The position numbers and the translations under genes were made by a program. A DNA stretch of 59,633 nucleotides, the filler included, from Circinaria calcarea (taxonomy: Eukaryota): NCBI GenBank assembly GCA_051942165.1. It is 9 parts of 9 records of this genome, joined end to end, with 100 filler letters (N's around TTAATTAATTAA, not from the genome) between each part and the next. Parts side by side here need not be neighbours in the genome. Positions count along the whole stretch, not along the records: positions 13,291 to 19,831 come from JAVECS010001558.1; 8 more parts are not named here. The stretch is one strand, 5' to 3'. Of the stretch, positions 2,422 through 43,027 are shown in pieces; the first letter of the stretch is position 1, and every line of letters begins with the position of its first letter. Under the pieces are notes generated by a model. It searched no databases. It was not told the DNA's origin and was given only the letters and a program-made list of their open reading frames with translations.

Positions 2422-4493
2422 ATGGAGGAGAGCTCTCTGCGGGACCTTTTCCCTTCGAGCTGGAGCGGCGGACTATGGGCCGGACTGTCTTTGGCCATCA
2501 TAGCAACGGCCCTCTTTTGTCTCCACTTCCAACATACCGTTTTCAACAACGAAGACGATCGTCCCGTGCACTTTACCGTTCCCATCCCCGAGCCGTGCAA
2601 GCCAGGATGGGAGGGGAAGGTGCTGGAGAGACCAACTGTAAAGGTGAGTCACCTTCATTTGATAGTACGTGAAGTCCGGAGGTGGAGGATGGATGAATTG
2701 GCAACTGACCGAGGCGATTGATATAGGTCTCCGGTACAAGCGCCATACAATGCTACTGCCCCGCCAATGGTCGATTGCTCGGCCAAGTGAACCCAGCAAC
2801 GCCTGATGGTATTGATCGAGCCATTGCCAAAGCTCGGGAGGCGCAGGCAGAATGGGCAAAGACAACGTGGGGCCAGAGGAGAAAGGTGCTGAGGACGATG
2901 TTGGGGTTGGTTCATACCCCTCGATGTAAAGCGAAGTGACCATCAGGTTCTGACCACGAATATTCAACTAGCTATATTCTCGCGAATCAAGAAACCATTG
3001 CGAGGGTAGCATGCCTTGATTCCGGCAAAACAAAGATCGATGCTAGCTTCGGGGAGATATTGGTTACGGCAGAAAAGTTGAAATGGACAATCCAGCATGG
3101 GGAAAAAGCGTTATTGCCAGAGCGACGGCCTACGAATTTCCTGATGGCGTACAAGTATAATGAAGTCAGGTGGGAGCCGTTGGGGGTAGTTGCTGCCTGT
3201 GTGAGCTGGAAGTAGGTTCTTAAGAGCCTTCAAGCCTATGCGGAGATGGGAGACTGATATGTTGCAGTTATCCAGTAAGCCCACAAATCACTGATGGTCA
3301 ATTGCTCGGCTAACCACGACTATTAACAGTTCCACAACCTCATGGGTCCTATCATTTCCACCATCTTCACCGGCTCTGCTATCATTGTCAAGTCGTCCGA
3401 ACGTACTGCCTGGTCGATGAAATACTTTAGCTCTATTACCCGTGTGGCTCTCGCAGCTTGTGGTCATTCGCCAGAACTCGTCCAAGCCATTGTCTGCTGG
3501 CCCCAAACGGCTAACCACCTGACATCTCATCCGGAAGTTAGCCACATCACCTTCATCGGCTCTCGACTGGTCGCCCATGCCGTTTGCGCGTCCGCTGCCA
3601 AAGCCTTGATACCGGTATGCGTAGAGCTGGGCGGCAAAGATCCAGCGATCATCTTGGACGATGTGAAAACGGTGGATAAGGTGGCTAGCATCCTTATGCG
3701 TGGAGTTTTCCAATCTGCGGGCCAGAATTGCGTCGGTGTCGAACGGGTCATCGCCCTGCCAACTGCTTACAGTAAGCTCGTCCAGGTGCTCAAACCTAGG
3801 ATCCGCAACCTACGTGTTGGCTCCGCTCTTGACGATGAAGACAATGTTGACGTCGGTGCCATGATCTCCTCGGAGTCGTTTGACCGCCTAGAAACCTTGA
3901 TCGCAGACGCCGTCACTGAGGGCGCGAACCTCCTTGTGGGAGGTAAGCGTTATATTCATCCCAAATACCCGCACGGACATTACTTTCAACCAACGCTCCT
4001 AACCGACGTCCTCCCATCCATGCGTATAGCTTCTGAAGAACTTTTTGCTCCCGTCTGCGTTCTCATGCATGCCTCCTCCGTCACTGAAGCTATCAAAATT
4101 GCCAATGATACACCGTACGCACTCGGTGCCAGTGTCTTTGGCACTTCCCGACCAGATCTTGATGCGGTAGTCCACGGAGTGAAGGCAGGCATGGTCAGCG
4201 TGAATGACTTTGCAGTCTACTACGCCGTGCAACTTCCCTTTGGCGGCGTCGGAGGAAGTGGATACGGCAGATTCGCAGGCGAGGAAGGATTGAGGTCGAT
4301 TTGCAACACGAAGAGCGTGTGTCGGGATCGATGGCCGAGTTTGGTGGGAACGAGTATTCCAAAGGCATTGGATTATCCGATCAAGAGCGGGAGGAAAGGA
4401 TGGGAGGTGTGCAAGGGAGTTGTCGCGTTAGGGTATGGGGAGGAGATAGGGGAAAGGATGAAGGGGGTGTGGAAGATTGTGAGGAATGGGTAG
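2422..4493 (+). CDS. MSC7: Msc7-like aldehyde dehydrogenase with N-terminal membrane anchor; 4 introns including a 7-nt micro-exon
   Basis: N-terminal TM segment; WNYPFHN (assembled across a micro-exon), FIGS, ELGGKD, catalytic GQNC, EELFAP, PFGG..SGYGRFAGEEGL. Confidence 0.88.
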
Positions 4494-6548: not shown

Positions 6549-6648
6549 NNNNNNNNNNNNNNNNNNNNNNNNNNNNNNNNNNNNNNNNNNNNTTAATTAA
6601 TTAANNNNNNNNNNNNNNNNNNNNNNNNNNNNNNNNNNNNNNNNNNNN
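6549..6648. other. Artificial contig linker (N44-TTAATTAATTAA-N44)
   Basis: Identical 100-bp spacer with stops in all six frames. Confidence 0.99.
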
Positions 6649-7431: not shown

Positions 7432-8842
7432 TTAGCTCCTTGTCTTGACTACTAGCCCGGTCTTGGCGATCCGAGCAGCACCAATGATAGCCGATGATGC
7501 TAAGAGCATCACACCACACCAAATGATGAGGCCAACCCAATTCTGAGAGCCCCCAAGAATGACTCCAGCAACCGGCCCACCAATGAGTACGCCAAATCCG
7601 ATGAAAGCAAAACTCATACCCAAACGAGTGCCCAAAACCCTCTTATCAAGTGACACGCTAGCTATAACTGGAATAGGTAGAGATACAAATGGTCCAGAGA
7701 AGAAACCATAGAGCGTGGTGAAAGCTATAACAGCGCGGGATGTCTTGATAGCCAGCAGACAGAAAGATAGTATCCCCGTTGCAACACCGAAGAAAACCTG
7801 TGTGTTCATAGGTCCAAAATAGCCAGCGGCATAATTGGGCAGAAGGCGACCAAAGAAGGAGGCCGCATTTAGGATTGCAAGAAGATAGAACGCAAGGCCA
7901 GGCTCAGTACCAGTAACTTGGATAGCATAAAGTTGGATATAGTAGTATAAGACATAGAGACCCAAGAAACCGATGAAAAAGCCAATACAGGAAAGCAGGT
8001 ATGGTACGTCTTTGAAGGCGTGAAGGTCGATCAAAGCACGTCTCGTTGCGGAAGGCGGGTTCCGTAGTTGCATAAGGGCTACTGCAGGCAGCATGGTACC
8101 GAGGATCATAAAACCCATAATACGAACTGTCCAACCGAAGCCAATTCGGGGGGTAAGCTGGTTCAAGAGTATAGGGTAAATGACAGCGCCTAGCCAACGG
8201 TGAGTAGTGTTCATTCAAGGAGGTAATTCTACAAGACTCACCAATACTAGATCCCGTAGTTGCGATGCCAACAGCGAAGGAGTTCTTGGTAGAAAACCAT
8301 TGAGGCACAATTGCGGAAGCTGGCATAAAAACAAAACCAAATCCAACGCCCACTACGATTGCCTGGGCGAGAAAGAATTGCCAATAAGTGTGGCAAAGAC
8401 TTAGCATCATCATGCCGAAGACGCTGACGACAATGCCGATGACGAGGAGGAAACGAATATGACCAGCGTCCCAGATAGGCCCGGTGAAGATTGTCGTAAC
8501 ATAGCAGAGGAGAAACTGAACGGAGCCAATCCAGGAGATATTAGAGGAGGATTCGGAACGGAGGATATCTATCTCGTAAATGGTCTGAAACTGTCCATAC
8601 GTGTTGAGAATACCGAGAACGTTGAAGAAGATCAGCCAGGAACAGATGACTTGCACCCATGCCGCAAGACCTCCGTCTGGGGGAGGTTTGGGTGGCATGG
8701 GAGAAGATGTCGAGTTTCCATCGCGTGGGCTACCATGCTCGAGGGATTGTAGCGGAAGAGTAGATTTCTCGCGCGTCTTCGAGGTCTTTGGTGCAATAGA
8801 AGTATGTGAACGCTCTCGGCTAGACTCTTTTTCGGACATCAT
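7432..8842 (-). CDS. MFS monocarboxylate (MCT-family) transporter; one intron (8190-8241)
   Basis: PPDGGLAAW, ISWIGSVQ, QWFS, GSSIG|GAVIYP, GTRLGM motifs; about 12 hydrophobic segments; two ORFs joined by a GTGAGT..CTAG intron. Confidence 0.92.
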
Positions 8843-9212
8843 CTGAATAACTTTTCAATTTTAGGAGAGAGAGTACTTTAACGGCGTAACGACTTAGAAA
8901 TCTGTAGAAATGGTCCGACAGTGCTCGGGGAGATTTTGGCGAAGAGAAAGGTCGACAAAGGATGAGAAGAAGGCCATTGTGACGTGACGGGTATAGGGAA
9001 ATAAGAAGTGAGCTCTAACTCCGCACATAGGGCTGTGGTCGGAGATCTTCCGAGGTCCGAACGCGGGTAGATAAGGGACTGTCGATCTCTCGGAAAGCCC
9101 ATGCGATGCTACTTCGGCGCTGGAAAAGGATTCGGACCATCCCGAATCAAACATTATTCCCGAATCCAACGACGATCTGTTACGACAGTTAACTGTATCC
9201 ACATAAAATGCG

Positions 9213-9300
9213 CCACCACACTAGTCCACCACGCTAGTCCGCCACGCTAGTCCGCCACGCTAGTTCACCACACTAGTTCATCACACTAGTCCATCACACC
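9213..9300 (+). repeat. 13-bp tandem repeat (consensus CCACCACRCTAGT) x ~6.7 in the divergent MFS/P450 promoter
   Basis: ccaccacactagt/ccaccacgctagt/ccgccacgctagt x2/tcaccacactagt/tcatcacactagt/ccatcacacc. Confidence 0.95.
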
Positions 9301-9751
9301 ATCAGGGTGAAAGGGACGATGTCGCTTATTCATAACATCCGCGCTTCAAGGGACGTTAAGCAGAATGTCGATCCCTTCACCGCTGCGATCCTCTGGTCAG
9401 GATCTCCACTGGGACTCTGCAATGCTATCCTTCCATTGAGGATACGCTGGGACCCAGGTAACTGAGTGAATATGAAAAAGCAAAACCTTGAAGAGATAGG
9501 GGCTGAGGGTAGGTCCGACTCAGACCCGTACTTTCATGCCGAACATGAGATATTCGTGAACCGGGGTCACTGGCCCTCTTGATTGAGTGACGTTTGTGAT
9601 TCGCAAGTGTTAAAGTACGAATATTTATAAGCTCATGTTAAGACTCGTTTGTGGAGCATGCTATGAAGATTGAATAATTCTGCTTCGTTTATGGTAATTC
9701 TACACTCAAATAGTACATCCATCCTATCGATAAACGAACGCAACGTTGAAT

Positions 9752-11528
9752 ATGATGTTAAACAATTTTGCCATGCCTGACGCCTCTCATATGTCTACTA
9801 CCTATCTTACTGCGATTTTGACGATTTCTACATTCGTATGGCTGGCCAAAAATCGCTTCAACAAGGGCCTGAACAAGCTACCAGGTCCCTACCTTGCTTC
9901 TTTAACTAACTGGTGGCGTCTATTCTACGTTCTTGTTGGCCGACGCCAAGATCAAGTTCAGAACCGTCTCCACGAGCAGTACGGAGACGTAGTCCGGTAT
10001 GGCCCTAACATCGTGAGCTTTGCAAACCCGAAGGCGATTAAGGATATATATGGAATTGGTAAACCTTTAACCAAGGTATGCCTGATCCGCAAGTACTTGG
10101 CTGGCTACTTTTCAAGACTAACCAGCCGCTTAGTCGGAATACTATCTCCCTTCGCAAGCCATGAGTCAAGGCCGTGCCATGCCAGCGCTCTTCACCATGC
10201 TCGAAAACAAGCCTCACGCTCAGCTGAAGCGCACCCTTACGAGTGCTTTTAGTGGGTCCTCTATCGTAAGTCTCGAGCCACTTGTCGACCCGGTGATCGT
10301 ACGGTGGGCAGAGCAGACAAAGAAGATCTATGTTGAAACAGGCCAAGTCTGCGACTTTGGTCTCTGGCTACAATTCTTCGCCTTTGATGTGGTCACAAAC
10401 CTTACGTATAGCAAGACGCACGGCTTTGTTGACCAACATAAGGATGTGGACGGGATCGTTGCCTGGCTCGGCTGGATGTTTAGCTACACATCTGTCGTAA
10501 GTGCTCTCTTCGTCTTCGGCGTCAAAGGAGCGATTTTGTTATCCTAATCTCCTCATCTAGGTGGGCCAGATTCCTTTTCTCGATCAGTTGCTCAATAAAA
10601 ATCCCATTCAGCGCTTTCTGGAATGGACGGGTCTCAGCGCACCCTGCTTCCCGACGGTAATCTTTGCCAAAAAGCGCATGGCCGAACGTACCTCCACCGA
10701 CCCGGCCCTTATCCCCACGCAATCAGGCATGCGTCAAGATCTCCTGACGCAACTCATTCAATCCGGCAAGCAACATCCAAAAGTCCTTACGGATAAGATG
10801 ATCCTCACCACAGCAGTCAGCATCGCCTTCGCTGGCTCAGACAATACTGCCGTTACTCTATCCGCCATTTTCTACTATCTTCTCAAAAATCCCCGCACAT
10901 ACCGAAAGCTGCTAGCGGAACTTGATGACGCTGCTGCTCATGGCCGCATACCTACCGATCCATCCACCCTCATCACCTGGGAGCAAAGCCAAGCCCTCAC
11001 CTACTTCAACGCGGTGGTCAAAGAAGCTATGCGCCTGTACCCCTCTGTGGGCGGCATCCTCGAGCGTGTCACCCCGCAAGGCGGCGCGGAGATCATGGGA
11101 AAGTGGTACCCAGGTAGTACTATTGTCGGCTGTAACGCATGGGTAATACACCAGCGGCAAGAGGTATTCGGCAAAGACGCGGCCGACTTTAGGCCGGAGC
11201 GGTGGATCGACGGTGATCCCGATACGATCAAAATGATGAACAACAACTTCTTCGCATTTGGAGCCGGCAGTAGAGCTTGCCTCGGGAGGAATATCAGCCT
11301 GTTGGAAATTGGAAAGGCGGTGCCGGTGTGGCTGCGGATGTTCGATGTGTGTATATCACTTTTTTTATCTTGTGTGTATGGAATGCTGATATCGTGGATG
11401 TGTAGATTACACTTGCGGATCCTGACAAGGAATGGACAATCCACAACTCTTTTGTCGTCAAGCAACACGACTTTAATGTTCGTTTTACAATGAGGCAGTA
11501 TAATCGAAACGAGAAGGAAAAAGCGTAA
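9752..11528 (+). CDS. Cytochrome P450 (pisatin-demethylase-like group); 3 introns (~10076-10133, 10496-10560, 11348-11405); true start may be 9773 or 9791
   Basis: N-terminal TM + LPGP; YGDVVRYGPN; FFAFDV; I-helix AGSDNT; EAMR; PERW; heme motif FGAGSRACLG. Confidence 0.93.
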
Positions 11529-13190: not shown

Positions 13191-13290
13191 NNNNNNNNNN
13201 NNNNNNNNNNNNNNNNNNNNNNNNNNNNNNNNNNTTAATTAATTAANNNNNNNNNNNNNNNNNNNNNNNNNNNNNNNNNNNNNNNNNNNN
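13191..13290. other. Artificial contig linker
   Basis: N44-TTAATTAATTAA-N44. Confidence 0.99.
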
Positions 13291-13401: not shown

Positions 13402-13844
13402 TGTTATGGCGCCACGTCATATCCTAATTAACTAAGGGCCGGAACGGAGGAGCACAGGGGCCGGGTGCTTCTAGTGCTCCCAGGGCTTGGCAGCAGGAAC
13501 AACAGGAGGAGCATGTGATATGCTCTGGGTACTCCGGGTGCTTTGTTATGGCGCCACGCCATACTCAGGGTCCAGGACCAATACGGACTAGGAAGGTTCA
13601 CTCACGTGACTGAGCAGAGTGAGCAGAGTGGTGCTCCAAGTGCTCGGGATACGCAGGCTACTATATATAGCAGGCTATTTCCGCTCTTTAAAATAGTATG
13701 CTTATAGAACCATAACGAGTTCAATATACTCCTTTTATATTGAGTTTAGGGCAATAATTCAACTATACCTTATATAATCGTGCTGTCACCAATCGGGACC
13801 TATTATATTCCTCAATAGGCCCCAAGGATTGTAGCGCCCTTACA
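13402..13844 (+). mobile_element. Solo or compound LTR (family copy 1)
   Basis: Starts TGTTATGGCGCC (repeated at 13544) and ends CCCTTACA; TATA box; 3' 175 bp shared with 50165-50339; flanks CTTAC/CCCAC could be a RIP-altered 5-bp TSD. Confidence 0.8.
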
Positions 13845-14074
13845 CCCACGTAATTTAATATATTATTCCCACGCACCCTCGGTAATATATTTAAATTAAT
13901 CGGAAAATAAATAATCCGGCGCTAATAAACGTTAACCGCATTATTCGTATAAAATTTAATTTTATATATTGAAAGTAATATAGAGTTATGAAAATGTTAT
14001 AATTCGTGTTTTTTTTCTAATTAATTATTATAGCTAATCTTCTTTTTTTCTTACTTCTTCGCTAGCAGTTCTAC

Positions 14075-14576
14075 TCACTCTATATAGATATAACCTTGCG
14101 ACGTTTGCCAGACGCCTTAACGACGCCCACGCTGCCTCTGCTTCCTGCGCCCCTTTGCGCTTTGGTCGAGTTGATGCCACTAGCTCCTCTATACCTTCCA
14201 CCCTGTTTACTTGCGCTTCTGCCTCCTCCTCCGCCTGCTCAACTGCGTCCTCCTCCGCCTGTCCGACTGCGTCCTCCTTCGTCTACCCGACTGCGTCCTC
14301 CTTCGTCTGCCCGACTGGCTTCTCGCTCGCCTGCCCAACTGCCTCTTTCTCCGCCTACCTGCCTGCGTCCTCGCCCGCTTCCTCTGCCGCCTTCCTTGCC
14401 CGTATTCGCTCTGCCCGATCAGCGAGGAACTTCTTGAACTTGGGAACTGGGTCGTCTGGACGAGAAGAACGAGGAGGAAATATCGACGGGTGCGTCGGTG
14501 ATAAAAAAGGGGGGTGCGTGGCTGATACGGTAGGGTGCGTGGGAGAAGTGAATGGCAAAGTAGGGGTGCGTGGCAA
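14075..14576 (-). pseudogene. RIP-damaged ORF with 24-bp (EEDAVGQ[A/T]) repeats, probably a transposon protein relic
   Basis: Frame KFLADRAERIRARKAAEEAGEDAGR*AEKEAVGQ..TKEDAVG*TKEDAVGQ. The TAG stops sit where sister repeats have CAG; flanks are very AT-rich. Confidence 0.6.
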
Positions 14577-14700
14577 ATATTCGCCGTTATTTTATTATTT
14601 TTATTTAATACGCTAGCGTAACAAATATTCGAATTAACTCGGAACCGGTTATAGAAGAAATTTAATTATTATATATTTCCGCCGTTCTACTTGTTTTATT

Positions 14701-16311
14701 TTAAGAGATGTAGAAGGCATAGCGGCTGAACTCATTATCATCCTGCAAAAAATCCCTTTCTTCCTCGGATAAAGTCATTATAAACTCAATACCGCCATGC
14801 TGTTTGCGCGGAATCACAAAGCACGTTCGATACCTGCGATTGCACATCCCCATTATTGGGCGGAATGCTTCTGGCCTTCCGCCATTAGCAAATACATGCT
14901 CTCCGAAGAAAGCCTCGTTGAATGGTAGCACCATCGGCGATAAAATGCCAACAGATGGCGACTGCGTTGACAAGCGCGAAGCGCGTATCTGTACATGGCG
15001 GTTGTTATACTCTGGGATAGCCCGCAATAAACCATAGGCTTCCAGCAGAGCATTTTCGTGGGCTTCTCTCGTGGCGTTCTTGCGGATCATCTTGGCCACC
15101 CATGGAATGCTCGTCTCTGGAGAGATCAGAGTGCGCAACGGAAGAGTCAATATATGCTCGAAGTTCAGATTGCCGAGATAGTTGGCAGGCAGAAGATGCG
15201 AGAGATCTGGCCGTGCATCGAAGGGGATAGCAAGCGTCGCTGTTTCGCCAAAGTCTGCTTTCTGTTGTGCTCTTACAGCTGTCCAGGCTCTAAGGATGCT
15301 CCTCCAGATGAAAGCACAGAGAATATCGTTCCCGGAAACGTCGGTAACATTGTGTACAGAAGCAAGCTCTCTACGGAGTTCCGTGTACTTAGGCTGTGGC
15401 ATGTAGAAAATGCTGGGCTTCATATCAGACTCCTGGTAATTATTATGGCTTGTGCCAAGCGTAACGTTAGTTTCAGCGCTGTCTTCAAGCTGGGCTTCAT
15501 TTTCGCTTGCCCCGTCACATCCATCAATCCCGACGAGGTGCTGCGAATATGAGGCTTGGTTTTTATCGAAGAAATCAAGCAACTTGGACGGATCTCTCGC
15601 TTCAGCCAAGACAGTGTCTAAGGCAACCCGATCGACGCCTCCTGCGGGAAGTGGCAGAAGCGATTGATTTCCATTTGCCGTCTTGTCCTCGCGCTCGCGC
15701 AAGAGGCTGCTACAGTGGTCCGCCCACAATCTGATCACACTGAGCATTGCAGTCCCATCCGAAGCCGGTGGTGCAATGGACAAAACCAGGAGGCAGCCCC
15801 CGGGAACGAAATTTGCCTGGGCTGCAAATACTTCCGCTCCTGACTCGAAGTCTGGTTCGAACGGTGATGTCCAAAGCAAGGCCTCATCATCGAACACGTC
15901 CAAGGGAAAGCCAGCCTCACGCAGCTCAGCAAATGACATAGACTTTGGGAGCTCATTGAAGCGTAATGGGATTTCAGAAGTCGGAGCGGATCCTCGGCCT
16001 TGATCTATGGAATTATAGCGTATCTCTAGCTGACCGGGTCGCCACCCGGGCGAGTCTCGTGATTGTAAGTACACCCGGCCATTGAGCCACGGTGCCTGGA
16101 GGATCGTCTGGCGTAGACTTTCACAGAGGCAGGTAAATGCATATTTAGGGTCTATATCTTGCTTCAAGCCAAGATATATAATGCTCTGAGGAATGTTGCA
16201 GGGCGCGATGTGGTCCAGAGGGCCGAGCGGGAGGTACAGCTTGTCAGTTTCTGAAGCCATGGCCGGCAAATATCCAGGCCATTCGAAGGAGTCGAAGGAG
16301 TCGGCGGTCAT
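14701..16311 (-). CDS. CoA-dependent acyltransferase-fold (Tri101/BAHD-like) protein, intronless, with non-canonical active site
   Basis: LGPLD, PWLNGRV, AQANFVPGGCLL, SGNDILCAFIWR, FDARP..LP.NYLGN, GRPEAFR motifs; the HxxxDG position reads PPASDG. Confidence 0.85.
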   Translation of the reverse strand: MTADSFDSFEWPGYLPAMASETDKLYLPLGPLDHIAPCNIPQSIIYLGLKQDIDPKYAFTCLCESLRQTILQAPWLNGRVYLQSRDSPGWRPGQLEIRYNSIDQGRGSAPTSEIPLRFNELPKSMSFAELREAGFPLDVFDDEALLWTSPFEPDFESGAEVFAAQANFVPGGCLLVLSIAPPASDGTAMLSVIRLWADHCSSLLREREDKTANGNQSLLPLPAGGVDRVALDTVLAEARDPSKLLDFFDKNQASYSQHLVGIDGCDGASENEAQLEDSAETNVTLGTSHNNYQESDMKPSIFYMPQPKYTELRRELASVHNVTDVSGNDILCAFIWRSILRAWTAVRAQQKADFGETATLAIPFDARPDLSHLLPANYLGNLNFEHILTLPLRTLISPETSIPWVAKMIRKNATREAHENALLEAYGLLRAIPEYNNRHVQIRASRLSTQSPSVGILSPMVLPFNEAFFGEHVFANGGRPEAFRPIMGMCNRRYRTCFVIPRKQHGGIEFIMTLSEEERDFLQDDNEFSRYAFYIS

Positions 16312-16867: not shown

Positions 16868-17798
16868 TCAGAAGTCATACAATGCTTGCAGCTGCTTTCC
16901 CTTTTCAGCCGCATCCTTTGCCATTGAGATTATGGTCAAAACTTCCGACCTCTTGAACGGTATATCATGACCTCCATCGTGCCGATACAGTTGGGTTAAC
17001 GAAGGAGTATACAGTCCCTCTGCCACACGCGACTGTTCTGCCATAGCATATACATCCTTCTCCCCCGAAACGTGCACAGTGGGGATACGGATACGCTCCT
17101 TGTATATTTGCGGATGTAACAGGCGTGGAACATTCCCTGCCCGCGCCTCAAACGAGAGGAAGTCGAGACGTGTGTTTGGCAGAATGTTTCCGACGCTTGA
17201 GTGCATCGACAAAACGACTTTCAGGTATTCGGCGAAGACGCGCTCGTCATCCGAATCTAGCAGCGAAACAAAGTCGCCATCTGGGAACTCTGTGCGGAAA
17301 TCTGAGTGGTCGTCATCAAGGATGCGGTCGACAAGGCTCTCATAACAATGGTCGTCGGCTGAGGCGATGAAAATAGGCGAAAAGAATAAGGCGAAGCAGA
17401 AAGGCGGCTTGGTGTCTGGGTTTTTGCGTTGCTGGTCAAGGATATAGCTCACGGCCACTGCAGATCCAAGGCTGAACCCCAGAACGCCGTCGAAAGGGCC
17501 TTTTTGCTTAATAAAGATGTCTATCCGATGAAGCGCCTCTCGCATTTCCTGCGGAGAAAAACCCGTGGCGTAAGACTGAAAAGGCCCAGGTTCCCAAGCT
17601 GGAACCGCTGTGAAAAGTCAGGCTCGGAGATGTGTCTGTGCATAGGTGTGAGAGCATACCGGGTCCTCTTCCACACGGTATTGCTCCGTCAAAAAATACA
17701 AATTGATAGCCTGCGCCAAAGCTCTTGATAAATGGTGCCAATTGGGCCTTCAGCATGGCGCCGGACGCGCCCAGTCCGTGCAGAGCTAGAATCTTCAT
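16868..17798 (-). CDS. FSH1/LovG-type serine hydrolase (trans-acting esterase); one intron (17608-17659)
   Basis: MKILALHGLG; GPFDGVLGFSLG nucleophile elbow; IPTVHVSGEKD; HDGGHDIP (Ser-Asp-His triad). Confidence 0.92.
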
Positions 17799-18250: not shown

Positions 18251-19831
18251 ATGGGAATCTCGTATGGCATGGTAGCTGGAGTGCTTCTCTTATGCTATAT
18301 AGTATGGAGAATCTCTTCCAACTCGGGCCCACGTCTTCCCAAAGGTCTCCCGATCATTGGTGCACGCAAAGGCGACTGGTTTCCCTTTTGGCAGGCGACA
18401 CTGCGAAACTCGCTCGACGTAAAGAAGGCAGCACTGGATGGATACAAGCAATACCCTAACGAGGCGGCAATTCTACCTGTCGCCGGTCCTGGAGGAGCCA
18501 GCTTCATCGTCTTGCCTGCCTCCGAGACCCAATTCGTCACCGAGCAGCCAGACTCAGTCCTCAATCTCCGCGCCGTTATTATCAAGGGACTTCTCTACAG
18601 ATACACAGTAGCGGACCAATTCATCGTTTCTAATGCGGCACATCAACATATCATCACAACCATACTGACAAATCAAATTGGCAATATGTTGTCTGCGTTG
18701 AACAACGAGACGGCATTCTGCTTCGAGCAGATTTGGGGCACCGACACCGAGACCTTCCGCGATGTAGGTGTATGGGACACTCTGGGTCGCGTTGTGGGCG
18801 GCGTCACGAACCGTGCCTTTGTTGGGCTTCCCTATTCCCGCGATCCGGTGCTGCTCACCGCTGGCCTTAACTTCGCTCGATGTCTACCTCTGAGCGCAAG
18901 ATTCTTAAGTTTCGTATGGGAGCCTTTGCGCCCATTGGCTTCGCCACTCTTCACCTTGCCGAATCGTATCTTCGAGCGCCGCTTCACCAATATTCTACTA
19001 CCGGAGATCAATCGTCGTCTTCGGCGTCGCTTTGACCATATGAATAATAACAAGGAGAATTATGTTGCCGACAAGAATGACTTCTTGCAGTGGAGCATTG
19101 AGCAAGCTATTGCGAGCGGTGATCCGCGTATGTGGAAGCCCAGAACACTAGCAGGCCGAGTTCTTCTGCTGAACCTAGTGTCTATCCATACCTCATCCCT
19201 GACAGTTACAAATCTCGTCCTGGACCTCATCTCGTCGAAGGCTGAGACTCTCGATGAACTTCGCAATGAGATCACTAGCGTCTTAGCGGAGACGCAGGGT
19301 ATTTGGACCAAGACCGCAATGTACAAGATGGAGAAACTTGATTCTGTATTCCGTGAGAGCGCACGTCTCAACACACTGACAGCAATTGCTCTGCGGCGGG
19401 TGGTTATAGCTAAGAACGGGATAACGAGTCCTTCAGGAGTTCATATTCCCTGCGGTAATTTCTGTGCAGTACCCAGCCTCGCGGTGTTGACAGACGCTAA
19501 GAAATACTCATCGCCGGAAAGCTTTGACCCGTTCCGGTTCGTCGATCTACGACGAGAGGTCAACAGCGGCGAGAGGCTTCCGGATCACGTGGAGCGATCA
19601 CGCATGTCATTTCCCGCTACCAGCAACGATTATCTAGCATTCGGCAATGGACGGCAAGCCTGTCCTGGTCGCTTCTTCGCTACTGCTGAGCTGAAGCTTA
19701 TGTTGGCTTATGTTTTATTGCATTATAACTTTGAGATGCTGCCGAAGCGGCCGTCCGATTCTTGGGTGGGGATTTTGCGCATTCCCTCGCCCAGCGCCAA
19801 AATACGAGTAAAGCGGAGGAAGGCATCGGAA
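18251..19831 (+). CDS. Cytochrome P450 (ent-kaurene-oxidase/PaxP-like group), intronless; stop codon beyond the contig end
   Basis: TM anchor; NRAFVGLP; SIHTSS I-helix; KLDSVFRESAR; FDPFRF; FGNGRQACPGRFFA. Confidence 0.93.
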
Positions 19832-19931
19832 NNNNNNNNNNNNNNNNNNNNNNNNNNNNNNNNNNNNNNNNNNNNTTAATTAATTAANNNNNNNNNNNNN
19901 NNNNNNNNNNNNNNNNNNNNNNNNNNNNNNN
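19832..19931. other. Artificial contig linker
   Basis: N44-TTAATTAATTAA-N44. Confidence 0.99.
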
Positions 19932-22888: not shown

Positions 22889-25800
22889 ATGGATTCAGTC
22901 AAGGATACACCTGTGAAGAGGAGGAGGACTGAGACGGGCTTTGTGGCAGCCAGTCAAACATACGATTCGCAGGAGGACAGTGGGGATGACCTATTCAAAG
23001 ACTATGAAACTATTGCGACCCTTCAATTGCCTAGAGGTGAAGCCACGCCGGGAGCGCAGGATATCCTCTCGTCACCAATGCCACACGTAACGCAACCCAC
23101 TCAACTGATTGACAGAAACATCGGAAAGTCCGATAATACAAGTGTCACGCCTTCAGTGGTTCAGGTTGCAGCTTCATCACCAATACGTAGTCCTCCGCCA
23201 TCTTCAGCTAGTGCAAGGAAGCCAGGTGGAATTCTCGCGAATGTAATGGCACCACCTGGAACGGCATTTCGATTACCGGTGGGCGTAACAAAGCCACCTC
23301 AAAAGCGGACAGTTATAAATTTAAGTGACGATGAAGGACCAAAATATCAAGGAAGCTCATCTGAGGAAGATTCGCAAAGGAGTCGCAGGATCAACATTAA
23401 ACCCTCTACTTTCATTCAGCGGGCGCAGAAGGCCATGGGTGCCGATTATACCAAGAGTACAACGACACCACAAGTGGCCAACGGTCTTACCCGGTTTCAA
23501 GAACTCACAGCGAATTCATTTTACAAACCGATGGAAGGGGACAAGCCTAAGAAGCTTCCGTCATCGCTGTCAGGCTCGGTCTTCGATTCAAGGAACCGCG
23601 ATGAGAGCAATACGACATCAAGGATTTCCTCATCCGTCAATCGATCTGCCGATGTCATGGCCAACGCATACGGGACCTCCAGCCGTCCACCAAGGCAAGC
23701 CTTTCAAACGGGTCCAGCGAAAGCTATGCCCGTAGAGGATATTTCTCTTGATGATATAGCAGACTATCAGCAGCGTAAGAAGATTGAAAGGATGCGAGCC
23801 ATCGTTCCCAAGTACTCGGTCAAAATGTGTAATGATGCGTTGGTAAAAAGGCGAGGACACGAGGAAGATGCTCTGGAACTCTTAACTTCTGAAGAAGAGC
23901 ATCGTCAGGAGATAGATCTCACGTTATCGGACCAGGAGCGTTCATCTGGTAGCGCCCCTCCGAAACGCAAAGCGCCGGTTAAACAGCAGATCAAAGCTCC
24001 AATTCGGACAATCCAAGAAAAGTGGACCGCGGCCCAGAGTATTCCGCGGAACACTCAAACTGCTGTATCGTCTCCGCCTCCTGAGCCCCTGAAGCAAAGA
24101 CGGCGGCTTGTCAAAGGGCGAAAACGACTATCCTCTCCGGTAGCTGAACCGCAGAAGGTGCCAAGCCCTCCTCGTCGCACGGCAACTCCTCTGTCTGTCG
24201 ATGACTCTGACTCGGGAGTCGACTTGGAAGCTGAAACTACTAGTGGGTTGGATGGAAGACTATTGACATTCTTCAACTCCTGTTCTGTTTCGGATCTTGC
24301 TGATATTGCCGAAATAACCGAGGAGGTGGCTTCTGTATTGCTTTCGCAAAAACCATTCCGCGGCCTGGATGATGTGAGGCGTGTCTCGAGCGAAACGAAG
24401 CCAGGCAAGCGACCAGGTGTAAGAAAAGCTATTGGAGAGAAGATTGTCGATAAATGTCTAGAGATGTGGAGCGGTTACGAGGCTATAGACGAACTCGTCC
24501 GACAATGCGAGGCTATAGGAAAGCCAGTAGCCGAGGAGATGAGGAAATGGGGTGTCGATGTCTTTGGTGCATCTAAAGATGGCGAGCTAGACCTTGTCGA
24601 CTTTCACGATATGAAGAGCGAGGATCATGGTGAGAATTCCTCAATGCGAGACTCTGGAATCGGTACGCCGACGAGCACCGTCGTATCAGCCGATGAGGAC
24701 GCCGATATGGTTATTAAGAGGAGTTCAGAATATCGAGGGAGATCAAAGCAGGTATTCTTTCCCCAACCTTCCATCATGGGCGAGGGCGTCGTCTTAAAGG
24801 ATTACCAAATCGTTGGAATTAACTGGTTGTCTTTACTTTACGAGAAGCAACTCAGTTGCATCCTTGCAGACGACATGGGCTTAGGAAAGACATGTCAAGT
24901 AATTGCCTTCCTTGCCCATCTGTTACAAAAGGGTGTCAAAGGGCCACATCTTGTAGTAGTACCAGGTTCGACGTTGGAAAATTGGCTACGAGAATTTAGG
25001 CTCTTCTGTCCAAAACTGTTTGTTATGCCCTATTATGGTAAGCTCATGATTGAAAGTCGAGTGTGTATGCAGTCTTGCTAAATTACTATAGCTGGCCAGA
25101 ATGAGCGGATTGGGGTTCGCGAACAGATTGAGGATAATATAGATTCAGTTAATGTCATTGTCACGACTTACGGCATAGCGAAGACCAAAGATGACACGAA
25201 GTTTTTACGACGCTTGCGACCTTGTGTAAGTTTGAGCAAACACTTGTATTCTCTGGTGACTTAGTCATACTAAGTCAATATCATAGGTCTGCGTATATGA
25301 TGAAGGTCATATCTTGAAGAATAGCAAATCCGCCGGTTACGAACAACTTATGAAAATACCTGCTACTTTCCGACTCCTGCTAACCGGAACACCTCTGCAG
25401 AACAACCTGAAGGAATTGGCTTCACTGCTGGGCTTTATCCTACCTTCTGTTTTCAAAGAGCATGCAGAAAATCTAGAATATATTTTTAATCATAAAGCGA
25501 AGACGACAGACGAGACACATGAAGCACTTCTCTCGGCGCAACGGATCGCACGTGCTAGGTCAATGATGACACCGTTTGTTTTGCGGAGAAAGAAGCACCA
25601 GGTCCTGAAACATCTCCCTGCGAAGATGAGAAGAGTCGAGTACTGCAATCTATCAGCATCGCAGCAAGAGATTTACGAAGGAAAGAAAGCGGAAGTTCGA
25701 CGTATCATGGAAGATCGAGCGGCCGGAAAGAAAACTGGTAGCCAGAACAGCAACGTTTTGATGAAGCTCCGCCAGGCGTCAATCCATCCTCTCCTGTTTC

Positions 25801-26472
25801 GTCGTCTATTTGACGACAAAACCTTATCCAGGATGTCCCGGGCGTGTCTGAAGGAAGAGAAATTCCGAGACTCCAATGTCGACCGGGTCTACGAAGACAT
25901 GAGCATCATGACCGACTTCGAGCTCCACCGCTTCTGCGACAACTACCCGACCACGATGGCCAAATTCCGCCTCCCCGGTGAACCGTGGATGGACTCGGGT
26001 AAGGTCAGTAAATTGGCCGAACTTCTCGGCGCCTTCAAGGCCGCCGGCGACCGTGTCCTCATCTTTTCCCAGTTCGTCATGGTCATGGACATCCTCGAGG
26101 CCGTCATGGAGACGTTGGGCATGCGCTTCTTCCGCCTCGACGGTTCCACCAAGATCGAGGAGCGCCAGGACATGATCGATCAGTTCTACGCCGAAGACGA
26201 CATTACGGTATTCTTGCTGTCGACCAAGGCCGGTGGCGCGGGCATCAACCTCGCCTGCGCGAACAAGGTCGTCATTTTCGATTCCAGCTTTAACCCGCAG
26301 GACGATATCCAGGCCGAGAACCGGGCGCATCGCGTGGGGCAGACGAGGCCGGTCGAGGTCATTCGCTTGGTGAGTCGGGGTACAATTGAGGAGGCGATGC
26401 TTTCGCTGGGCGAGTCCAAGTTGGCACTCGATGAGATGGTGGCGGGGGAGGGTGCGGTTGGGAGTGCTGTCT
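22889..26472 (+). CDS. FUN30: SNF2-family chromatin remodeller Fun30/Fft/SMARCAD1; introns ~25038-25091 and ~25226-25286; 3'-truncated
   Basis: [60 protein letters not shown]. Confidence 0.9.
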
Positions 26473-26572
26473 NNNNNNNNNNNNNNNNNNNNNNNNNNNN
26501 NNNNNNNNNNNNNNNNTTAATTAATTAANNNNNNNNNNNNNNNNNNNNNNNNNNNNNNNNNNNNNNNNNNNN
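26473..26572. other. Artificial contig linker
   Basis: N44-TTAATTAATTAA-N44. Confidence 0.99.
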
Positions 26573-33211: not shown

Positions 33212-35572
33212 AAGAATCACTGTTCGGTGGTGTACAATGACACCCTCTACGCCTATCAGTCAGACTCATTCCAGTCACTTCCACTCCGGAACGGATCTCA
33301 ATGGTCGGTGCTGCCCATGGGAGTCTCTGCAGACGGCGCCAGGTGTGTTCAGGCTCCCATGAACGGACTTGACGCTTTGTTCGTGGTCGGCGGCTCAACG
33401 AACGCGTCGACACAGGATTACCCCGGGCTCCAGGTGTACACCTTCGCCGATAAGACATGGCGGAACTGGTCACCTCAAATCTCTGTTACTCGAAACCGAT
33501 TGATGCACGGAGCGGCGTACTTGCAGTCGACGTCTTCGATCTTGATATACGCCGGCTTTCAGGATAACAGTTACCTTAGCACTTCAGCCACGTTTACAAT
33601 CTCTACGAACGATCCCAATTTCGTGAGATCTTTCTCGTCTGATGCACCATCGGTGATTCAGCCGATATTACTACCATGGAACTCGAGTCACGCTGTACTC
33701 CTTGGAGGTAACACGGAGAACAGAGAGGTCTGGGTCTTCAGCGAGGCTGATGGATGGAATCACTTGGACGTCAAATTACCAAACGGTCTTCAAGATATCA
33801 GCAGGGTGCAAGCTGCCCTTTTGAACAGAGAAGACGGAAGCAAAATACTTGAAATCTTTGATGAGGGCGCTTCGCCAAACACTGTAACCACTTTACTACT
33901 CCGGGGCCCTGATGGCCAGCCGGCTGCAAGTCAAGGATCCTCGTCTTCAACGTCGTCATCGCCACCTGCCGCAGAAAGACGACGGTCAAGGCCCGGGTCA
34001 CGGAGAGACATCCAAGCTAGCACTTTGCCGGCATACAACAGTACGTTTGCACCTCTGGTTACCAGGAACGGATTTTCGCTCGCTCAAGATCCTTCTGGCT
34101 TAGTAGTCATAACTGGTGGCAACAACCAAGTTCCCATATCTCTCTTCAATCAAACTGAGAACGGATGGCTGGATGCAGTTCAGTTTTTCAACACACCCCC
34201 AACGGCCGTTTCAGCACCCAACCCTACCACGGCATCTCCGACCGAGAGTCTTACAGCGATTCCTTCCTCATCATCGTCATCGCCGCCTTTGCCTGATCCT
34301 AATGCGGGAAGGAACAACTCTCTCTTGATTGTCGGCGCTACATTAGGAGGTGTCTTTGGGTTTGCAGCTATACTGCTGGCTGTACTATTGTTATTACGGT
34401 ACTTGAAGCAAAGACAAAAAACGGCGCGCAAACAACGCGCGGGCGAACTGCCGCTGGAAAGCAAGCATCGAATGGACTTCGCCGACCAAGGCGCAGAGTT
34501 CATGTCGAGCGCAGGTGGTTCCTTCGGCAGAAGTAATCATAGAGCCTCAAACTCCGGGCAGACAGCTACGTCTACTTTTTTAACAAAAGGTTCTAACCGG
34601 ACGAAGCGAGGCTTCTTCCATAAAGCAGGTGACAGCAACGGAAGTACAAAGTCCCTGTTCAGTCGTGATAAATCCCCCATTATATCTTCGCCACATCCTT
34701 TCACCTCGCCTCGCCCAGATCGACCACTGCTAGCCGTCTCCCCTGTTCGGCTGGATGGACTCACATTAGGTGTCCCTTCACCGGAGCCGCGCACTGAGCC
34801 AAGAACAGACGAAGGTTGGAGCAGGTACTTTGCGAATAACAACAATGCCACGGACCTTAGTAACATGCCTTCTGGCTACACCCGCTATGATCACCACTCC
34901 ACGCCGAGCACATACACCTCCTCGAGCCATTCTAACTACACGAGCTCTCGCATTCCGTCATCTCACCCTCACCAATCCGCAGAAGTAGCCCCGCTCAACC
35001 TTGGCGCGAATCAATGTCCCTCTTCTGAGCATCGACACGGGGACCCTACTCACCTATGCCCTTTTCCACACATCGGTGCTTCCCACAGCCACACAAGGCA
35101 GCTCGTACCGTCCACGCCTTCAACCCTGTTCACCCATCTCCCAGACGACGATGATCTCGACGAAAGCTCCGGCCATGAGTCTTGGACACCCGTCGGTACG
35201 AGCGACAGGGGCAGTACCTGGGGAGATCGGCCGGCTAGCAGTGCGTATGGCGAGAGCGTCGCCTACGCGCACCCAGGGGAAAAGGTGCGAATTCCGAACT
35301 TCCCCGGTGTTCCTTCTTCGCGTGCCAGTCAGAAGACGGTGATACACCGTGGCGAGGAAAGGGGCATGAGAAGGACTGCCTCGAAGGATTTTGTGGGCGG
35401 TCTCCCACGGCCAAGTGAGAGGCCGAAGCTTGATGGTGGCAGTCGGCAGCCGGGATTCAGCGATGAAGATCAGAGGTCGATACCCTTTCCAAGGCGCGTG
35501 CATGACACTGGGGGCCTACAGAGGGTCGAGAGATCCGCTGAAGATATGAGTTGGCTGAACTTGGGGAAGTAA
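33212..35572 (+). CDS. Single-pass membrane protein with Kelch/galactose-oxidase-like ectodomain and disordered cytoplasmic tail; 5'-truncated
   Basis: Repeated hhhGG blades (LFVVGG, ILIYAG, VLLGG, VVITGG); Ser/Thr/Pro stalk; TM LIVGATLGGVFGFAAILLAVLLLL; ends DMSWLNLG. Confidence 0.75.
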   Translation, partial: KNHCSVVYNDTLYAYQSDSFQSLPLRNGSQWSVLPMGVSADGARCVQAPMNGLDALFVVGGSTNASTQDYPGLQVYTFADKTWRNWSPQISVTRNRLMHGAAYLQSTSSILIYAGFQDNSYLSTSATFTISTNDPNFVRSFSSDAPSVIQPILLPWNSSHAVLLGGNTENREVWVFSEADGWNHLDVKLPNGLQDISRVQAALLNREDGSKILEIFDEGASPNTVTTLLLRGPDGQPAASQGSSSSTSSSPPAAERRRSRPGSRRDIQASTLPAYNSTFAPLVTRNGFSLAQDPSGLVVITGGNNQVPISLFNQTENGWLDAVQFFNTPPTAVSAPNPTTASPTESLTAIPSSSSSSPPLPDPNAGRNNSLLIVGATLGGVFGFAAILLAVLLLLRYLKQRQKTARKQRAGELPLESKHRMDFADQGAEFMSSAGGSFGRSNHRASNSGQTATSTFLTKGSNRTKRGFFHKAGDSNGSTKSLFSRDKSPIISSPHPFTSPRPDRPLLAVSPVRLDGLTLGVPSPEPRTEPRTDEGWSRYFANNNNATDLSNMPSGYTRYDHHSTPSTYTSSSHSNYTSSRIPSSHPHQSAEVAPLNLGANQCPSSEHRHGDPTHLCPFPHIGASHSHTRQLVPSTPSTLFTHLPDDDDLDESSGHESWTPVGTSDRGSTWGDRPASSAYGESVAYAHPGEKVRIPNFPGVPSSRASQKTVIHRGEERGMRRTASKDFVGGLPRPSERPKLDGGSRQPGFSDEDQRSIPFPRRVHDTGGLQRVERSAEDMSWLNLGK

Positions 35573-41212: not shown

Positions 41213-43027
41213 TTAGCGAAGCGAGAACCCCTTTCTCTTGCCCTCTTTTTCTATCGGCCGTCCACTCTCAACGCGCGACTTTTTCTCCTCCAACTCCAGA
41301 CGCTGTCTCTCCAACTGGTCTTTCATCTCGCGGTGTCTTGCGTAGAGCTCCTCCTCGCTCTGCTTCAGTTTACTCTCTTTCTCGGCGACTTTCTGTTGGA
41401 AGACCATTTTCATCTCCGACTCCATTTTCTGCAGCTTTTGCTCATGAAGCGTACGCTCCTCTTCCTGCTTAACAGCAGGGTTGATCTCCTTGAAGACACT
41501 TTGGTCTTGAGCGACGCCCATTGATGCCAGTTTATCTGATCGATAGTTTTCGTAGAGGGCATTGTTGGTATGCTCTTTGAGCTCCTCCATGTGTGTGCGG
41601 ATTAACATCTGTCTTAGCTTGACAAAGTCACAGTGATCCTCATTATCCACTTCAATCACTCCCCATGGATAACGACGTCCGCGAACTTTGCGACCTTCCG
41701 GGCTAGTAACTTCCGAGTTTGCACCCACGACAGCGAAAGGAACCTTGGACATGATCTCCTGGTTTTCCGCGATCGTTTCTTCGTCGTCGAGTTCATATCG
41801 AGGTCCTTCAAAGATTTGGATTGAATGGTGATGGATATCGGCCAAGATCTGACTAGGTCAGCATAGCTTCTATTCTCAATCGGGAATACTCACTCTCTCC
41901 TTGAACATGAAAATCTCTTCATCGGTCAAAGTATCTGCCTTGGCAATGACGGGTATCAAATTGACCTTGGTGTGCAGTCGACGCATAACTTCGATATCAA
42001 GTGGCTTGAGTGCGTGGCCTGTAGGCTGAATGAAGTAAACGCAAGCGTGTACACGGTTGTCCACGACGTTCATTCGGTTGACCTTGGTTTCAGCCTCAAG
42101 GTAGGCGTCGAAACGCTGCTCAATGTGTTCCACAATCGGACGCCACGAGTCATCATTGTTCACGAAGTCACCGAACCCCGGGGTATCCACCACTGTTAAG
42201 CGTAGCCGAACACCGTTTTCCTCGATGTCTGCACTGAATGACTGAATCGACACGGTTTTTGGGATGATATCCAGACTCGGTCCCTTGCGCTCCTTGGGAG
42301 GATACAGAGAGGTGTTGAAGAGGGTGTCGACAAGGGTTGATTTTCCAAGGCCAGATTCACCTGACAAGGTCAGCACGTTGAGCATAGCCGTCTTAGCGCA
42401 TATCATACCAACGACCATAACGTTGAAATTGAATCCTTTTCGTACACTCTTCCGATGCCATTGGTTTGGTAGATTCGCAAATCCAACGTAGCCCGTAAGC
42501 TTCCTCCGGACGACATTTCTCATATCACTTGCGGCTTGCGCTGCAGCCTTTGGATCCTTTGAGCTGACTGTCTGAGCTGAGCTCTGGCCATTAGCTCCCA
42601 TTGGGTTGCTACGCTCTACATATGGCGATACAGGCTTGCCGTTGGGAACAGGAGGACCCTGTAGAACTTGCGGCGCTGGCGAACCACGATTGGGTGCGGG
42701 TGGTAAAGGGCCGTTGGTAGCTGTAGAAGATGGAAATATGTCAGCCATTTTTAAACCTTGACGATTGACTTCATGGTTGATAGGGTGGGTGCAATGTCGG
42801 TTGACACGTTGGGTTCGTGATTCTCCTTGCTCTTAAAGGCTCTGGGTTTGAGAATAGCGCCGTTTGGCGATAGATCAACGTTGATCAATCTCATCAACTA
42901 TGGCGGGGTGAAACAAATGGTCGTCTTTCACTTCTTGTTGGATAATCCAGACTGTCACCGGTGTCCTTGGTGTCCATAGACAGGTACGGGTGTGTAGAGA
43001 ATACAGTGGTAAGAGGTGCTTACCCAT
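41213..43027 (-). CDS. CDC3: Septin Cdc3/AspB; first coding exon probably only ATGG (43024-43027)
   Basis: [47 protein letters not shown], coiled coil, KRKGFSLR*. Confidence 0.93.

Follow-up and report, generated by a model that had tools for sequence, protein, structure and literature searches.

A conserved clade of fungal BAHD/Tri101-fold proteins without the catalytic histidine, encoded next to FSH1 hydrolase and cytochrome P450 genes and likely within a reducing polyketide synthase cluster

We analysed a window of 59,633 nucleotides, filler included, from Circinaria calcarea (assembly GCA_051942165.1), a string of ~6.5-kb contigs joined by N44-TTAATTAATTAA-N44 linkers (6549-6648, 13191-13290, 19832-19931 and five more). 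One of these contigs, G000:C1558 (13291-19831), carries repeats, a gene for a protein of the BAHD/Tri101 acyltransferase fold that lacks the catalytic His, an FSH1 serine hydrolase gene and a cytochrome P450 gene, with the catalytic motifs of the two neighbouring enzymes kept. Phylogenetic analysis and motif conservation indicate that the His-less protein belongs to a real, conserved clade, which has the BAHD/Tri101 fold but lacks two catalytic features. With respect to function, we tentatively propose, from conservation patterns in the sequences, that it might no longer acylate and might have been repurposed as a cyclase or isomerase that works with a Glu, in a polyketide pathway that has probably not been studied so far.

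The gene consists of a single open reading frame (ORF) of 536 codons with zero internal stops, and a 519-residue form starting at Met18 is common among its relatives. Both profile and structure comparisons place the product in the two-lobed, CAT-like BAHD/Tri101 fold: it scores 55.4 bits against Pfam Transferase (PF02458) and 36.7 bits against TRI-like_N (PF22664), both above the respective cut-offs, and the closest structural match of its AlphaFold model (pLDDT 81.9) is the Fusarium trichothecene 3-O-acetyltransferase Tri101 (PDB 2RKV, 2ZBA; Z 35.0, root-mean-square deviation (rmsd) 2.6, 381 aligned residues, 22% identity; Foldseek E 6e-26), a member of the same Pfam families. In the alignment with HGAMD of FgTri101, the position of the catalytic His is occupied by Pro181, the codon of which (CCA, 15769-15771) is two substitutions away from CAY. 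This His is the established general base of the acyltransferases (PMC13205910). By contrast, Asp185, the structural Asp of HxxxD, and its partner Arg367 of the DxR motif are invariant in all 61 His-less sequences. Thus, the features on which a first-pass annotation of the window had relied, namely the uninterrupted frame, the retained scaffold motifs and a Pro codon two changes away from His, are all borne out. The further claim of that annotation, that neither a single error nor repeat-induced point mutation (RIP) explains the Pro codon, holds as well because orthologues at four loci have varied codons at this position (CCG, CCG, CCT and GCG) and RNA contigs of relatives span the ORF; together, these observations reject sequencing error, RIP and a hidden intron. 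In all three RNA runs, which come from two studies and represent relatives at 90-99% identity, the contigs cover all three genes of C1558, with no joint within the part of the ORF homologous to the relatives and with the FSH1 intron spliced; such contigs show presence rather than level, DNA carry-over being uncontrolled.

The absence of the His is a property of an entire clade. In the alignment of 80 matches with the query, the His column contains H in 24 rows, P in 20, S in 17, A in 15, C in one and gaps in four; the 51 best matches all lack the His, and the first His-bearing match appears at 41% identity. From 231 sequences (this set extended by a representative search and by eight cluster members), 188 that covered at least 330 profile columns were kept and 43 fragments dropped; 61 of the 188 lack the His and have P (23), S (20), A (16), C (1) or G (1) instead. 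These 61 sequences, from several ascomycete classes, form one clade in a FastTree phylogeny computed with the motif columns removed (support 100), nested among His-bearing relatives, and loss of the His maps as one change compared with a mean of 52 after shuffling. The clade is also recovered by IQ-TREE from 20 + 30 sequences (support 100/100), with a long-branch warning on two outgroup rows of this subset. Because the His is present in Tri101, in HCT and in the outer relatives, its loss is a derived state. The named clade members are from Aspergillus, Penicillium, dermatophytes, Xylariales, Hyaloscypha, Pleosporales and lichen assemblies. Pairwise dN/dS is 0.20-0.31 in seven of 10 pairs, the remaining three being saturated, which indicates purifying selection. 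The first-pass annotation had called for a search for homologues sharing the His-less motif and for a dN/dS estimate, and had named close orthologues retaining the His as the finding that would speak against its interpretation; instead, the whole clade shares the motif under selective constraint.

It is therefore highly improbable that the gene is an acyltransferase in decay or an artefact of the assembly. One relative does present a broken copy, and the C. calcarea gene itself lies beside repeats. The loss is shared by the 61 sequences, however, and the dN/dS values, the different codons at the site and the RNA contigs of relatives all argue the other way; for the clade as a whole, decay or assembly error is refuted by dN/dS and by the FastTree and IQ-TREE support. 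The broken copy (L010/L013 10001-12384, the two loci having the same sequence) is a His-less orthologue whose frame is disrupted by stop codons and frameshifts. A degenerate FSH1 gene adjoins it and P450 and regulator orthologues lie upstream, the whole being a decaying copy of the cluster described below.

Apart from the His, a second catalytic feature has been lost and the predicted pocket appears to be remodelled. The (T/S)-S-W oxyanion segment, to which Trp371 of HCT belongs, reads L-S-P: Ser or Thr is present at position 457 in 120 of 127 His-bearing sequences but in none of the 61 His-less ones, none of which has the Trp. Conversely, two polar residues located at +2 and +4 after the Asn of the YFGN-type motif are invariant in the clade, namely Asn383 (61/61, vs 9/127 in His-bearing sequences) and Glu385 (61/61 vs 1/127). 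On one and the same branch, the clade lost the His together with the oxyanion Ser/Thr and acquired Asn383 and Glu385. In the Arabidopsis lyase EPS1, the segment N302-T306 is part of the active-site model, with V303 pointing away and T306 contacting the ligand (PMC11605079); by motif, T306 would correspond to Glu385, and if this mapping is correct, the strand with Asn383 and Glu385 lines the pocket, with Glu385 facing it. Two observations concern the base of the clade: P0358, the earliest-branching His-less member, has Gly at the His site and possesses the Asn/Glu pair, and in the sister group (P0349, P0056, P0058, P0061 and P0365) several sequences combine the canonical His with a His at 385 and are possible intermediates.

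Not all changes in this protein are informative on the loss of the His. The first-pass annotation correctly read FFG at the DFG position, but the weight that it gave to this change did not stand: the Asp of the DFGWG motif is present in just 40 of 127 His-bearing fungal relatives, so that FFG says nothing on the His loss and is rejected as evidence. Within the clade, FFG is a near-private change, CFG being found in 52 of the 61 sequences. His34 is present in 58 of the 61 His-less sequences but occurs in 41 of 127 His-bearing relatives as well, and hence is not a compensating gain, although it might act as a substitute His.

The loss of both the base and the oxyanion group argues against ordinary acyl transfer, and with two defining catalytic features gone the protein should not be filed as an acyltransferase. 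An acyltransferase in which the base was relocated to Glu385 or His34, or is supplied by the substrate, and which makes an ester or lactone from a chain bound to a polyketide synthase (PKS), is nevertheless conceivable, albeit unlikely. The fold and the scaffold are intact, Glu385 is invariant, His34 is nearly so, and some condensation-family enzymes tolerate loss of the His. Moreover, the presumed role of fungal HXXXD transferases encoded in PKS clusters is to transfer acyl chains of the PKS (XhL1, PMC13736955), and the genome's own His-bearing paralogue (32% identity) is located within a highly reducing PKS (HR-PKS) cluster. Against this possibility stand the established role of the His, the loss of the oxyanion Ser/Thr on the same branch, the broad distribution of His34 and the FSH1 hydrolase with intact motifs that is already at hand for release. 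As for the ancestral function, His-bearing relatives are fused behind adenylation-thiolation (A-T) or isocyanide synthase (ICS)-A-T domains in six of 15 proteins scanned (P0397, P0398, P0402, P0403, P0404 and P0422, in CrmA-like order); together with the paralogue in the HR-PKS cluster, this suggests that the ancestor likely moved acyl chains off carrier proteins. The paralogue's cluster (G000:C25 3135-26000, L014-L016) also includes short-chain dehydrogenases/reductases (SDRs) and P450s, and its PKS is 41-60% identical over aligned stretches to that of the cluster described next.

Contextual information from gene neighborhoods places the His-less gene in a polyketide pathway. In 15 named genomes, the accessions or locus tags of the orthologue are within 1-3 of those of an FSH1 or P450 orthologue (e.g., A. 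clavatus EAW12163-5, A. alliaceus KAE8384255-7, A. flavus AF70 KOC07350-2 and Hyaloscypha KAH8756462-4); in Apiospora phragmitis, the orthologue and its partner are seven apart, and of 13 other named genomes, seven have a proxy for a shared contig alone and six come without linkage information. By this indirect proxy, 33 of 52 His-less matches share a contig with FSH1/P450 partners compared with 0 of 24 His-bearing ones; because the partner lists are incomplete, the lack of a partner in the remaining 19, seven of which are on contigs shorter than 5 kb, does not mean absence. Furthermore, the first 141 bases of C1558 are identical to the last 141 of contig G000:C69 and match nothing else in the assembly. 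Although this join is a sequence overlap rather than a spanning read, a comparable overlap at the opposite end of C1558 carries the P450 frame into C5098 in agreement with P450 homologues, which is evidence that overlaps of this sort reflect real adjacency. Contig C69 (1794-27121, L019-L021) encodes an HR-PKS with the domain order KS-AT-DH-cMT-ER-KR-ACP (ketosynthase, acyltransferase, dehydratase, C-methyltransferase, enoylreductase, ketoreductase, acyl carrier protein), an ABC transporter, a flavin-dependent monooxygenase (FMO) whose C-terminal part is long and hydrophobic, two P450s, an SDR and a Zn2Cys6-like regulator; these were read from ORFs in advance of gene models, and the regulator was called by motif, outside any Pfam match. 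It is likely that this HR-PKS cluster is the rest of the cluster to which the His-less gene belongs.

Physical linkage to the HR-PKS cluster is indicated by the C69 overlap, by two other loci and by A. flavus AF70. Orthologues of one of the C69 P450s (59% and 79% identity) adjoin His-less copies in L010/L013 and L009, and a C69 regulator orthologue adjoins the copy in L010/L013; no C69 gene was seen at the other six related loci. In AF70, where FSH1 is AFLA70_220g001871, a strain-specific cluster with three P450s has been reported, and Table S1 of that source lists phosphopantetheine-binding, transferase, zinc and oxidoreductase terms for 001811, along with two oxidoreductases and a zinc-binding gene (PMC6028093); judging from these annotation terms, 001811 would be a reducing PKS. 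Two other candidate backbones of A. clavatus were set aside, the HR-PKS being better supported: the non-ribosomal peptide synthetase (NRPS) ACLA_061190 (A-T-C-A-T-C), five locus tags from the P450, and the non-reducing PKS ACLA_061390, thirteen tags from the transferase, the distances having been inferred from ACLA_061250. The linkage to FSH1, P450 and PKS genes anticipated by the first-pass annotation thus holds, with the PKS reached via the 141-bp overlap, and its view of a pseudo-enzyme or repurposed enzyme within a polyketide pathway is supported by the clade, the selection and this linkage. An association with the major facilitator superfamily (MFS) transporter and P450 at 7432-11493 is unsupported, these being on a separate contig. 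A further observation on the decaying copy is a 483-codon open frame without a Pfam match (L013 4828-6276) that abuts its P450.

Since an FMO and three P450s are present but none of the ORFs scanned is recognisable as a cyclase, a Glu-based cyclase or isomerase is in our view the best, if tentative, reading of the His-less protein. Two new invariant polar residues speak for a chemical role or firm binding of a ligand rather than for a plain scaffold. Under the scenario that we propose, the C69 HR-PKS would make the chain, and FSH1 would release it, replacing acyl transfer by the His-bearing, carrier-protein-linked relatives; this takeover of release might have freed the His-less protein to change. 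The FMO and the P450s would then oxidise the chain, e.g., to an epoxide or alcohol, and the His-less protein would steer ring closure, by epoxide opening or in a lactone-forming or oxa-Michael fashion, within the former acceptor pocket, which the small residue at the His site would have widened. Glu385 and Asn383 would likely constitute the rebuilt acid/base site that cyclises or isomerises the oxidised polyketide. The stronger claim that the clade represents a new ring-forming class, a Glu/Asn-based polyketide cyclase or pericyclase in a widespread HR-PKS cluster that arose after FSH1 took over release, is rather doubtful at present.

Several observations weigh against a cyclase or isomerase. 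The His site accepts five residues (P, S, A, C and G), which fits a non-catalytic protein as well, EPS1 having fixed Ser at the equivalent position; the role of the invariant residues of the pocket could be confined to binding. The His at 385 in several of the nearest His-bearing relatives implies that this position may be an older second catalytic site, and the oxyanion Trp is already gone in the nearest His-bearing relatives, so that its loss is not specific to the clade. The gene also has a higher dN/dS than its partners (0.22-0.27 at dS ~1.2, compared with 0.09 for the P450 and 0.14-0.16 for FSH1 at similar dS). Finally, at L005 no PKS is found within 6.5 kb past the P450 or 4 kb past the His-less gene, and a HET gene lies beyond the P450.

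Some of these points lead to the alternative of a non-catalytic accessory protein, which we consider unlikely but worth weighing: it would bind the tethered or released chain or dock on the PKS, FSH1 or P450, and so set chain length, folding or hand-over, in the manner of plant CER2/GL2 on KCS6, the condensation (CON) domain of LovB or the glycopeptide X domain. In favour of such a role, neither canonical catalytic feature remains and different residues occupy the His site; A-T domains precede the transferase domain in fused proteins among the close His-bearing relatives, so that the lineage likely handles carrier proteins; and in L010/L013 the His-less gene and FSH1 are both degenerate. The CON domain of LovB has an altered His motif, and LovG is of the FSH1 type. 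In the lovastatin system, LovB, an HR-PKS ending in the CAT-fold CON domain, works with the releasing thioesterase LovG and the P450 LovA (PMC7870829), but CON, a condensation domain of the NRPS kind, is fused in cis, whereas the His-less protein is a free-standing one of Tri101 type, and the C69 PKS has its own ER domain and its cluster an FMO, in contrast to the LovB system; an accessory role is less expected beside a PKS that already has an ER. The BAHD-fold protein GL2 acts non-catalytically on CER6 (PMC12674111), and CER2/GL2 (PDB 9KQG, 9UU3) in general operate beside the acyl-chain synthase KCS6/CER6 without acyl transfer; however, they keep HxxxD and partner a membrane elongase, and hence are not a close match. 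Moreover, a scaffold offers no clear reason for fixing two polar residues at predicted pocket positions in 61 of 61 sequences.

For the cyclase or isomerase that we favour, the nearest precedent by evolutionary pattern is EPS1 (isochorismoyl-glutamate pyruvoyl-glutamate lyase; PDB 6WAO, 6WCS; Z 30.4, rmsd 3.2, 377 aligned residues), which is an analogue and not an orthologue. EPS1 shares with the clade the BAHD fold, the lost His, a changed oxyanion Trp and monophyletic origin from HXXXD ancestors, and demonstrates that a BAHD protein so altered can be a lyase; it differs in being a plant protein of independent origin (16% identity) with a strict Ser at the His site, where the clade is variable. 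The substrate pocket of EPS1, to which Arg44, Arg395 and Thr306 contribute, is Arg-lined and takes a chorismate-derived substrate. Tri101, in contrast, keeps the HxxxD His and SSW where the clade has Pro/Ser/Ala and LSP plus the invariant Asn383/Glu385, and the His-less gene, unlike Tri101, lies in a PKS cluster. The terminal domains of proteins with the ICS-A-T-transferase order found in CrmA (PMC9381783), to which they are likened by that order, match the clade profile (E 1e-57) but keep the His and are fused. Searches of the literature by locus tags, accessions and His-less fungal acyltransferases yielded no description of the clade or its product beyond a mention of AF70 among the tags and accessions, subscription chemistry journals being poorly covered, and atlas searches returned generic names alone, with no match for a product; an earlier characterisation is rather unlikely.

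The clade is listed in databases as 'transferase family protein', and fungal proteins of this fold are labelled acyltransferases by default, so that the products of such clusters would be mispredicted. With two catalytic features lost and two invariant residues of the predicted pocket gained, the clade is a clear and testable example of how an enzyme is repurposed, in parallel with EPS1. Should the protein be a cyclase, a class of ring-forming enzymes would be added; should it be an accessory, it would provide a free-standing model for the long-debated role of non-canonical condensation-fold domains, such as LovB CON, beside HR-PKSs. Knock-out is within reach because the cluster is found in culturable relatives in Aspergillus, Penicillium, Hypoxylon and Xylaria.

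Table 1. Features of contig G000:C1558, in coordinates of the window
Feature	Positions	Strand	Basis or remark
His-less Tri101/BAHD-fold gene, 536 aa	14701..16311	minus	ORF, PF02458 + PF22664, Tri101 alignment, structural match
HxxxDG site reading APPASDG (residues 180-186), Pro181 in place of catalytic His	15754..15774	minus	Translation and Tri101 alignment
Asn383-Phe384-Glu385 after YLGN motif, candidate new pocket residues	15157..15165	minus	Asn and Glu invariant in clade
Leu457-Ser458-Pro459, aligned with HCT Thr-Ser-Trp oxyanion segment	14935..14943	minus	Ser/Thr lost in clade
FFG (F468-F469-G470) at DFG position	14902..14910	minus	CFG in most of clade; not diagnostic
NIPQS (39-43), conserved segment specific to clade	16183..16197	minus	Clade alignment
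FSH1 serine hydrolase gene, intron ~17608-17659	16868..17798	minus	Retains Ser of GFSLG, Asp and His of GGH
Cytochrome P450, divergent from FSH1	18251..19831	plus	Final codons are located on G000:C5098
141-bp contig start identical to end of G000:C69	13291..13431	plus	Unique match in assembly
Dispersed-repeat (transposon-like) stretch between overlap and gene	13540..14600		55 further assembly matches, 75-97% identity

Sequences on either side of a linker in the window are unrelated, but actual neighbours can be recovered through the 141-bp overlaps between contig ends of the assembly. Other contigs carry ordinary genes, for a GH5 protein with CBM1 (655-1698), an aldehyde dehydrogenase (3342-4493), an SNF2 helicase (22889-26528), a kelch protein (33317-35572), a septin (41213-42748) and Hsp70 (44435-46153).
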